A DNA stretch of 32,000 nucleotides, from positions 1-32,000 of the forward strand of contig NJBF01000033.1 of NCBI GenBank assembly GCA_003144275.1. Reading direction: 5' to 3'. The DNA is from Candidatus Heimdallarchaeota archaeon B3_Heim (lineage in GTDB: Archaea > Asgardarchaeota > Heimdallarchaeia > Hodarchaeales > Hodarchaeaceae). The notes under the pieces are model-generated. The model had not been told where the DNA came from and did no database searches. It saw only the letters and a list, made by a program, of their open reading frames with translations. The translations under genes and the position numbers were made by a program. Of this stretch, positions 13,306 through 15,312 are shown piece after piece (within the stretch, counting starts at the first letter, position 1; each line of letters starts with the position of its first letter).

Positions 13306-15312
13306 ATGGTAAACCAAAAAAGACGGAAAAAAACCCGAACAAGCTCTTTCGGTTCATCAAAAAGAGAAAGCCACGATGCTTCCCTTTTTTATAGGAGCAA
13401 ATTATATCAAAATCAGCCGATAGAAACTTCATCGACACAGACGGTAAATCAATTTCCATCTGAATATGAGAATTGTATTTTTTCTAAGTCCGCAGAAAGA
13501 ATGAAGGAAATTCCTGATAATAGCATTCATTTAATGATTTCTTCCCCTCCTTATAATTCATCTAAGGAATATGATGAAGATTTAAGTTTAGAAGAATACC
13601 TAGCATTCTTGAATCGTGTGTGGACTGAAGTCCAACGAGTTCTCATTCCAGGAGGGAGAGCCTGTATTAATATAGCAAATCTTGGCCGAAAACCATACAT
13701 TCCCCTTCATTCCTACATTATCAATTGTATGGATCAACTTGGCTTTCTCATGCGGGGAGAAATCATTTGGGATAAATCAGCCAGTGCAGGTACATCCACC
13801 GCCTGGGGTTGTTTTGACGATAAAACGCGTGTATTAACGAATAATGGATTAAAACTCTTTAAAGATGTCAATATGTCCTCTGATCTTTTTCCAACATTTA
13901 ATATTGAAGAAAATTCGATACAATATCAAAAAGCATTCGATTTCATTGAGAAACGGTTTGAGGGAGAGATGTACAAGATAAGTAATAAAAATTTCAATCT
14001 CGTCCTAACTCCAAACCATAATGTACTATACGTGTCACGAAAATACATACGTTCAGGTTCAATGCCCAAATTTTTATTCAAACCGATCAAAGAGTTGGCT
14101 CTTGATTCATTTTTCTATATCCCGAAGAAATATGGGGGTAGTTATAATTCAGGCAAGAATCTTTCACATTATTCCATTCCTAACACTACTTGCGGTAAAA
14201 GAACTAATAAAGAATATATAGAGAAAGATACTCTAAATATTGAAATGAACTCATGGTTGAAATTTTTAGGAATCTTCTTAACTGATGGGAGTGTATACTT
14301 CTCAACAAAAAATAGACAATATAAAGTTTCAATATTTCAGAAGAAAGAGAACTTCTTGGAGGAAATTCAAGATCTTTTACAAGAATTGCCATTTGATTTC
14401 AAACATAAACCATCGAAATACGAATACTACATCTGTAATAAAAGATTAGCCTCACTTTTATCAAAGTGGAAAGGGAAGAACAAGTTGATATTTCCAGAAT
14501 TCATTCATGATCTATCCATTTCACAAAAGCGAATTTTTGTTGAATGGCTTTTCAAAGGAGATGGATCATTTCATAAAGATGGAAGTCTCAGATACTTCGC
14601 AACAATTTCAATAAATTTCCGTGACAATTTATTTCATTTACTGTTGCAATTGGGCTATAATTTCTCTTTTTATAAGCAAAGTGACAAGTCTAGTCTGAGC
14701 AAAAATCCGATACCAATTTATCGAATTAACCTGAAGAAGAGTGATTACTATTACATAAGGAAAAGAAATATTACTACAACTCCGTATGATGGGAAGGTAT
14801 ATTGTGTCTCTGTTCCTAATAGAGTTCTATTTGTTGAACGTAATGGGAAATTCACCTGGTGCGGTAATAGCTGGCAGTCAGCATCCAATCCTACCCTAAG
14901 AGATGTGCATGAATATATCCTTATTTTTTCTAAAAGCGTGTACAAAAGAAATAAACCCGATAAAAGTTCAGATAGCATAACTCGCGATGAATTCCTCACA
15001 AATACCAAGAGTGTGTGGACCTTTCCAACCGAATCTGCAAAGAGAATTGGTCATCCAGCCCCCTTCCCAATTGAATTACCTTATCGTTTGATTCAACTAT
15101 ATTCCTTTCAAGAAGACATTGTGTTGGATCCTTTTATGGGGAGTGGTCAAACGGCTATTGCTGCATTAAAATCCTCACGTCGCTTTGTGGGGTATGACAT
15201 CAACCAAGATTATGTGGACTTAGCTAATAGACGCGTTAAACAATTCAAAGATGAACAAAGTCGTAAAAAGTTGGATAATTTTCTTCCCTCCCTCAGTGAA
15301 AATTCAGAATAA
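13306..15312 (+). CDS. Site-specific DNA amino-methyltransferase, beta class (SPPY, probably N4-cytosine), intein-containing; mature extein ~315 aa
   Basis: SPPY (13543-13554) precedes IIWDK, HEYILIFSK, HPAPFP and DPFMGSG (15127-15147), the beta permutation; splicing restores GTSTAWG|SWQSASNPTLRDVHEY. Confidence 0.92.
   Translation: MVNQKRRKKTRTSSFGSSKRESHDASLFYRSKLYQNQPIETSSTQTVNQFPSEYENCIFSKSAERMKEIPDNSIHLMISSPPYNSSKEYDEDLSLEEYLAFLNRVWTEVQRVLIPGGRACINIANLGRKPYIPLHSYIINCMDQLGFLMRGEIIWDKSASAGTSTAWGCFDDKTRVLTNNGLKLFKDVNMSSDLFPTFNIEENSIQYQKAFDFIEKRFEGEMYKISNKNFNLVLTPNHNVLYVSRKYIRSGSMPKFLFKPIKELALDSFFYIPKKYGGSYNSGKNLSHYSIPNTTCGKRTNKEYIEKDTLNIEMNSWLKFLGIFLTDGSVYFSTKNRQYKVSIFQKKENFLEEIQDLLQELPFDFKHKPSKYEYYICNKRLASLLSKWKGKNKLIFPEFIHDLSISQKRIFVEWLFKGDGSFHKDGSLRYFATISINFRDNLFHLLLQLGYNFSFYKQSDKSSLSKNPIPIYRINLKKSDYYYIRKRNITTTPYDGKVYCVSVPNRVLFVERNGKFTWCGNSWQSASNPTLRDVHEYILIFSKSVYKRNKPDKSSDSITRDEFLTNTKSVWTFPTESAKRIGHPAPFPIELPYRLIQLYSFQEDIVLDPFMGSGQTAIAALKSSRRFVGYDINQDYVDLANRRVKQFKDEQSRKKLDNFLPSLSENSE
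13810..14868 (+). mobile_element. Intein (353 aa, C169-N521) with double-motif LAGLIDADG homing endonuclease
   Basis: Block A CFDDKTRVLT; block B TPNH; motifs FLGIFLTDGS (14263-14292) and FVEWLFKGDGS (14536-14568); block F YDGKVYCVSV; terminal WCGN followed by Ser(+1). Confidence 0.93.

Follow-up and report, generated by a model that had tools for sequence, protein, structure and literature searches.

An intein with a LAGLIDADG endonuclease domain inserted in a conserved DNA methylase gene of an Asgard archaeon

In the current analysis an open reading frame of 668 residues in Candidatus Heimdallarchaeota archaeon B3_Heim has been identified as a DNA methylase of the PF01555 family that is interrupted by an intein of 353 residues. 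The frame occupies positions 13306-15312 on the forward strand of the first 32,000 nucleotides of contig NJBF01000033.1 (assembly GCA_003144275.1); this whole stretch is referred to as the window. We put the probability at about three in four that the insertion is a class-1-type homing intein, likely virus-derived, lodged in the invariant TAWG/SW loop of a vertically inherited orphan methylase with an SPPY motif, in a Hodarchaeales-like Asgard archaeon. The slash marks the point of insertion here and below.

The insertion, its splicing elements and its fold

The intein comprises residues 169-521 (13810-14868, forward strand) and is bounded by ...STAWG/CFDDKTRVLT... and ...FTWCGN/SWQSAS...; the DNA at its ends reads ...GCCTGGGGT/TGT... 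on the 5' side and ...GGTAAT/AGCTGGCAG... on the 3' side. A 353-residue intein at AWG/SWQSAS had been proposed from the sequence of the window (referred to below as the original prediction), and its coordinates and junction DNA are reproduced exactly. The spliced extein would be a methylase of 315 residues. In the Pfam database PF01555 has been assigned to the protein (E 2.4e-43) in two parts, corresponding to model positions 1-90 and 84-220, and between them are a match to LAGLIDADG_3 and a match to Intein_splicing of 29.2 bits, which is below the family cut-off of 35.8 bits. The insertion is missing from all orthologs, and its assignment is further supported by the LAGLIDADG_3 match, a predicted structure and structural comparison with Foldseek. 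The GC content of the intein is 31.6% and that of the exteins 38-39%; when the AT-rich intein DNA is shuffled, the open frame is kept in none of 20,000 shuffles.

The N-extein (residues 1-168; 13306-13809, forward strand) covers PF01555 model positions 1-90 and ends in TAWG. It has a conserved basic N-terminal stretch, the catalytic motif IV SPPY (residues 80-83, 13543-13554) and the IIWDK strand, and its start agrees with the N-terminus of the orthologs, MVNQKRRKK. The C-extein (residues 522-668 and the stop codon; 14869-15312, forward strand) covers model positions 84-220. It begins with the Ser at +1 (14869-14871) and contains the S-adenosylmethionine-binding motif I, DPFMGSG (residues 608-614, 15127-15147). 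The two exteins are 92% and 88% identical, respectively, to the intein-free ortholog P0004.

All the splicing residues named in the original prediction, Cys1, TxxH, the terminal Asn and Ser+1, have been found. Cys1 is Cys169 (13810-13812) and the TxxH of block B is Thr235-Pro-Asn-His238 (14008-14019); both are invariant in an alignment of 34 sequences of the intein clade. The intein ends in Gly520-Asn521 (14863-14868), followed by Ser522. At block F:4 is Cys500 (C332 of the intein, 14803-14805), which in an alignment with PI-PkoII occupies the position of its block F Asp. Other positions conserved in the clade, in intein numbering, are an acidic residue at 159 (D/E) with G160, Q177, D251-G252, Y331 next to C332, P336-N337, R344, G346, W350, G352 and N353, besides C1 and T67xxH70. 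The catalytic set of C1, T67/H70, D159, D251, C332, N353 and Ser+1 is kept, and altogether the intein retains 45 of the 48 clade-conserved positions, which is typical for a clade in which this number ranges from 39 to 46. By its Cys1, TxxH and Asn/Ser junction it appears to be a genuine class-1-type intein. Assignment to class 3 has been rejected, since Cys1 is present and only Cys F:4 of the Trp/Cys/Thr triplet agrees, with Val at B:12 and Cys at G:5.

Two residues depart from the common pattern. The block F His is replaced by Arg, at a position that is variable among the inteins of the same site, and the penultimate residue (block G:6) is Gly520 in place of the usual His. The latter substitution had been pointed out in the original prediction; it is confirmed, but it is a trait of the clade and no oddity of this copy. 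The Gly is near-invariant throughout the clade and in many host proteins, and because it is common to the whole clade it is not considered a defect. At F:4 of inteins only one residue is more common than Cys (PMC4031507), and protein splicing without the penultimate His is the subject of a study by Chen et al. as cited in the same review.

The intein model obtained with AlphaFold (AF2), with the clade alignment as input, has a mean predicted confidence (pLDDT) of 92.8 and a predicted template modelling score (pTM) of 0.90. Its HINT fold is supported by Foldseek matches to VMA inteins, PI-PkoII, PI-PfuI and PI-SceI (E 1e-15 to 1e-10), and the top fold matches in the Protein Data Bank (PDB) are endonuclease-bearing inteins (7qsu, 7qst, 2cw7, 1dq3 and 1vde). 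The homing-endonuclease domain spans approximately intein residues 138-314 (14221-14750, forward strand), as delimited by the secondary structure of the model, the profile match and Foldseek. In the model two LAGLIDADG helices, intein residues 146-159 and 237-251, each end in an Asp. These are Asp327 (TDGS at 326; 14284-14286) and Asp419 (GDGS at 418; 14560-14562), so that both motifs keep their Asp as had been predicted. The endonuclease core is matched by I-DmoI both by profile and by fold (Foldseek TM score by target 0.66), and a profile search of PDB sequences also matches residues 272-446 of PI-PkoII; a search of the PDB with the single intein sequence (phmmer) gives no matches, and the profile is required. 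The predicted architecture is that of a two-motif, monomeric-type LAGLIDADG endonuclease.

The well-known inteins with solved structures, TliVMA/PhoVMA, PI-PkoII, PI-PfuI and the yeast PI-SceI, share with the element described here the combination of HINT and LAGLIDADG domains, Cys1, TxxH and the terminal Asn, but the sequence identity is only 10-15%. The present clade differs from them in having Cys for Asp at F:4 and Gly for His before the terminal Asn, and there is no extra DNA-recognition or stirrup domain, as the size of 353 residues suggests.

The host methylase and its locus

A search with the C-extein identifies many proteins of 315 residues. The best of them (P0004-P0007) are 72-91% identical overall and all are continuous through TAWGSW; the alignment with intein-free orthologs that had been proposed as a check is gapless across TAWG/SW. 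The element is thus read, by comparison of sequences, as an insertion in a conserved host protein and not as a domain of the methylase. By the names given to their sources some of the close homologs belong to Hodarchaeales, and those 60-70% identical to Thorarchaeota or Promethearchaeota. Of 40 related genomes, 12 of the 21 that belong to the same genus encode a clear ortholog (E < 1e-100), as do another 4 from the same order or class. The ortholog is contiguous in all 16 of these and is split only in the genome of the window, that is, in one of 17 ortholog-bearing genomes.

The methylase gene is flanked by genes for a thiamine-binding protein, an S6PP_C-like protein, a protein of 87 residues, a PIG-L deacetylase and a DUF255 thioredoxin-like protein. 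The order thiamine-binding protein, S6PP_C-like protein, 87-residue protein, methylase, PIG-L and DUF255 is shared by the nearest relatives and by three metagenomic contigs. The fixed syntenic locus and the contiguous orthologs suggest that the methylase has been inherited vertically and that the intein was gained in this lineage alone.

Relative to the two nearest intein-free orthologs, which are about 90% identical at the nucleotide level, the exteins have a ratio of non-synonymous to synonymous substitution rates (dN/dS) of 0.13-0.15. The changes specific to the intein-bearing lineage are 27 synonymous and 5 non-synonymous, as against 15:8 and 21:12 in the two intein-free lineages, which points to purifying selection on the methylase along the intein-bearing branch. 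The conservation of the host methylase claimed in the original prediction is borne out both by these values and by the presence of the same locus in relatives.

The order of the motifs, with motif IV SPPY (residues 80-83) preceding motif I FMGSG (610-614), is that of the beta class, and together with the PF01555 match it agrees with the class predicted originally. Among solved structures TTHA0409 (2zie, E 4.7e-33) comes closest, and an N4-cytosine methylase (8s9n) is next. The top five fold matches in Swiss-Prot are M.MjaI, M.BglI, M.CfrBI, M.MthZI and M.MjaV, with identities of 23-31%; all five we take to be N4-cytosine enzymes of type II systems. M.MjaI, M.MthZI, M.BglI, M.CfrBI, TTHA0409 and HVO_0794 of Haloferax resemble the methylase described here in the PF01555 domain, in SPPY before motif I and in a length of about 300-360 residues. 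Based on the SPPY motif and on these relatives, only about 30% identical, the methylase is probably of the N4-cytosine type. A target resembling CGCG or CTAG is conceivable, as is a different one. The identity to M.MjaI and M.MthZI is only 29-31%, and transfer of the target from either enzyme has been rejected for that reason. The automatic name 'M.MjaI' on a homolog 62% identical has likewise been set aside, as it goes back to a weak likeness to M.MjaI. The observed/expected ratios in the genome are 1.02 for CTAG and 1.05 for CGCG, with no depletion, and lowest for CCGG (0.52); they give no clue to specificity. A group of homologs 56-65% identical to the extein (P0126, P0129, P0130, P0134, P0137, P0140, P0204, P0205 and P0234) has a C-terminal fusion to a ThaI-family endonuclease domain (PF15514), a single-chain restriction-modification form, and these proteins offer a lead to the target sequence of the family.

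As had been claimed originally, no restriction gene flanks the methylase: there is no restriction enzyme among its five named neighbours, and the loci of the relatives are likewise nuclease-free. A search of the genome, which is 94% complete, gives no match to the RE_MjaI or ThaI families. The methylase is therefore likely to be an orphan, like HVO_0794, the orphan CTAG methylase of Haloferax that is widely kept within its group (PMC5867850).

Several further observations concern the methylase and its family. Residues 1-55 (13306-13470) form a basic N-terminal extension outside PF01555 that is predicted to be disordered, with T12, S13, F15, G16, H23, D24, F28 and Y29 near-invariant. The AF2 model of an intein-free ortholog is of moderate confidence (pLDDT 66.7), with values below 50 in the loops that carry sites a and b (82-92 and 160-179). 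The genome has 32 matches to PF01555, on contigs C30, C44, C87, C34, C10, C12 and C48, several of them clustered; some are in very long frames (up to 1631 residues) or have internal stops, indicating an unusually rich and partly decayed set of N4/N6 methylases. Split PF01555 matches elsewhere in the genome were considered as related inteins and rejected, none of them carrying an intein related to this one. The homolog P0160 has, in the variable region that follows HEYILVF, a low-complexity insert of about 120 residues (residues ~240-360) in which a GGTPPSGNSVLHNG unit is repeated; it is not an intein.

The full protein of 668 residues was not found in the public protein collection searched over the matching length range. 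The only call of the gene there is a protein of 355 residues (P0002, 14245-15312) starting at Met314 inside the intein, and surveys of methylases or inteins may consequently miss the gene. Among sequencing runs, one DNA run has 6% of the sampled words, and the homologs on its contigs lack the intein and come from other organisms. No RNA run is among the runs listed as sharing sampled words; the survey bears neither on expression nor on the alleles of the source population.

Inteins of the same site, origin and repeated invasion

An exhaustive HMMER search with the intein gives 7,548 matches. The best nine (P0240-P0248), 42-51% identical, are all PF01555 methylases with the SPPY motif that have the intein at xAWG/C...WCGN/S(W). 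In the maximum-likelihood tree the inteins of this site form one clan with 100/100 support. Their host exteins are 35-45% identical to the extein described here and, by medians, are less alike (38%) than the inteins (47%). The same junction is found in at least 17 predicted viral contigs of IMG/VR, up to 208 kb long and mostly of about 30% GC. These relatives (P0240-P0248; L030-L045 and L057 in IMG/VR) share the insertion point, the C-terminus VERNG...WCGN and 40-51% of the intein sequence; they differ in lying in virus-like neighbourhoods, whereas the intein of B3_Heim is at a conserved cellular locus. The contigs of the nearest ones are virus-like: one has a row of ribonucleotide reductase (RNR), intein-bearing methylase, PolB, a second methylase, AdoMet synthase and an RFC-like gene; another consists of ORFans on one strand, and a third has a lysozyme-like gene. 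In GenBank phage records no methylase matches the intein with its flanks among the matches listed, of which the best are a Lak megaphage (33%) and RNR inteins of Staphylococcus phages. The original prediction had raised the prospect that the insertion site is common and already catalogued. The site is indeed recurrent, in nine diverged protein clusters and at least 17 predicted viral contigs, but no paper cataloguing it was found. A viral origin of the intein is probable.

The synonymous changes around the insertion are consistent with such an arrival. When the two nearest relatives are compared with each other, the stretch around the site ranks among the best conserved, and the identity of the window's gene to them is 0.80-0.87 at the site, against 0.92-0.97 in the neighbouring windows. 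Five of the 27 genome-specific synonymous changes fall within the 12 codons flanking the site (162-173), where about one is expected (P about 0.004-0.009, for a width picked after inspection of the data). The 5' half of this candidate co-conversion tract, extein codons 162-168 (13789-13809, forward strand), has three of them, at codons 162, 164 and 166, which differ from both nearest relatives; the 3' half, codons 169-173 (14869-14883, forward strand), includes the Ser+1 codon, which has changed from TCT to AGC. This local divergence resembles what co-conversion with a diverged donor would leave over a short tract, and is regarded as a candidate for such a tract.

The same methylase appears to have been invaded at other motifs. 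P0047 (663 residues), encoded at the same syntenic locus in another archaeon, has an intein inside motif I (DPFMG/SGQT), and the more distant homolog P0232, on a contig of 349 kb, has one directly after motif IV (SPPYNVGK/). Both inteins fall outside the clan of the TAWG/SW site. Inteins at three conserved motifs, two of them outside this clan, point to three separate invasions; the methylase would be a recurrent target of inteins, which fits its constraint and its sharing between viruses and hosts.

Other inteins in the genome are few. They are one in ThyX, which is 30% identical, belongs to the same broad clade and ends in WCGN/S, two in the RNR large subunit and one in MCM; their loci are at C61:40208-41305 (L027), C8:74100-76200 (L028) and C91:30900-31520 (L029). 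At C87:101789-102292 is a frame of 286 residues with LAGLIDADG_3 matches. Members of the same Gly-Asn clade have also been identified in unusual hosts (P0299, P0323, P0246 and P0300), namely two papain-family peptidases and two group 1 glycosyltransferases. The peptidase inteins are situated at NSWG/S, a context much like that of the methylase, and the common WG/S context might stem from ectopic homing or from requirements on the extein.

Proposed mechanism, alternatives and significance

According to the reading preferred here, the precursor of 668 residues would be translated whole. Cys169 would form the N-terminal thioester, Ser522 would take over the N-extein, and cyclisation of Asn521 would release the intein, giving the methylase of 315 residues and a free endonuclease of 353 residues. 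The endonuclease would cut intein-less alleles at the DNA coding for TAWG/SW, and repair would copy the intein in. Entry into this genome most likely followed the split from the sampled relatives, by homing from a virus-borne allele of an SPPY methylase, and about 36 bp of flanking extein DNA may have been carried along.

The intein is probably still splicing; of the indirect signs at hand, the strongest is the purifying selection that acts on the exteins. A number of points weigh against this account. The block F His is absent, as is the penultimate one, and this is the main reason for caution over the speed of splicing: Asn would have to cyclise without both of the usual His helpers, which could make splicing slow or dependent on special conditions. 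Intact exteins tell little about splicing if the insertion happened very recently. No sampled intein is more than about 50% identical, hence no donor has been identified; the case for a viral source is one of gene context and GC content, and the co-conversion tract was delimited with the data in view. As regards the orphan status, 6% of the genome is missing, and restriction enzymes of other, unrecognised families could remain.

Many resident inteins have decayed endonucleases, and a possible, though less favoured, explanation is that splicing is intact while the endonuclease is inactive, the element being a fixed and immobile passenger late in its homing cycle. The distance to the nearest sampled relative would agree with this. 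However, the Asp of each LAGLIDADG motif is retained, as is the conserved Gln177, the endonuclease domain has a high-confidence predicted fold, and the presence of the intein in one of 17 genomes with a candidate co-conversion tract fits recent homing and not long residence. The same restriction to one genome, along with the loss of the two His residues, could also be taken to mean that the intein does not splice in this host and that the methylase gene is effectively dead, looking intact only through recent invasion. We consider this unlikely, because the 27:5 changes show the extein to be more constrained than in the two intein-free lineages, and all nucleophiles are retained with the 45 clade-conserved positions. 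The Gly-Asn ending, moreover, is the norm of the clade across dozens of host proteins and would not persist in non-splicing elements, and a Cys at F:4 as well as splicing without the penultimate His have the precedents given above (PMC4031507).

The original prediction had also proposed conditional splicing as a switch on genome methylation. In such a scheme splicing would depend on redox state, temperature or DNA and would have been co-opted as a post-translational control of genome-wide N4-cytosine methylation. Three cysteines, Cys1, Cys F:4 and that of WCGN, are located at the splicing centre and could in principle make a disulfide trap, and conditional inteins are known, an example in PMC6195587 being the mycobacterial DnaB intein. 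If true, the repeated invasion, at three sites, of the locus of this probable orphan methylase would be a matter of tolerated or useful regulation and not of pure parasitism. The 16 relatives nevertheless do without the intein, and the same cysteines occur clade-wide in unrelated hosts (ThyX, peptidases and glycosyltransferases) and are therefore no adaptation to the methylase described here. The switch is pure speculation and we regard it as very improbable.

The statement of the original prediction that methyltransferase inteins are reported mainly from phages is in line with the papers searched, in which all methylase inteins are from phages. Eleven inteins have been described in PF01555 methylases (DNMT-1/2) of mycobacteriophages (Kelley et al. 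2016, PMC5050341), and a large methylase family of actinophages, that of Dorothy_75, also has inteins (Gosselin et al. 2023, PMC9957025). These are inteins in orphan methylases, and they share with the present case the N6_N4_Mtase type of the host (here probably an orphan as well), a LAGLIDADG-type intein (in Dorothy_75), a patchy distribution, conserved insertion sites, several insertion sites per family and transfer between diverged methylases. Their hosts are bacteriophages of Actinobacteria, whereas the gene interrupted here is chromosomal and syntenic and belongs to an Asgard archaeon. The literature searched, which was incomplete, yielded no report of an intein in a cellular methylase of archaea.

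The intein of B3_Heim thus adds a new and well-supported case to a known kind of selfish element and is not a new kind, and it leaves the knowledge of how inteins work unchanged. Its value is as a usable natural example of intein homing from virus to host, in which a conserved, probably orphan methylase on the chromosome of an Asgard archaeon is found together with same-site relatives in virus-like contigs and a possible scar of co-conversion.

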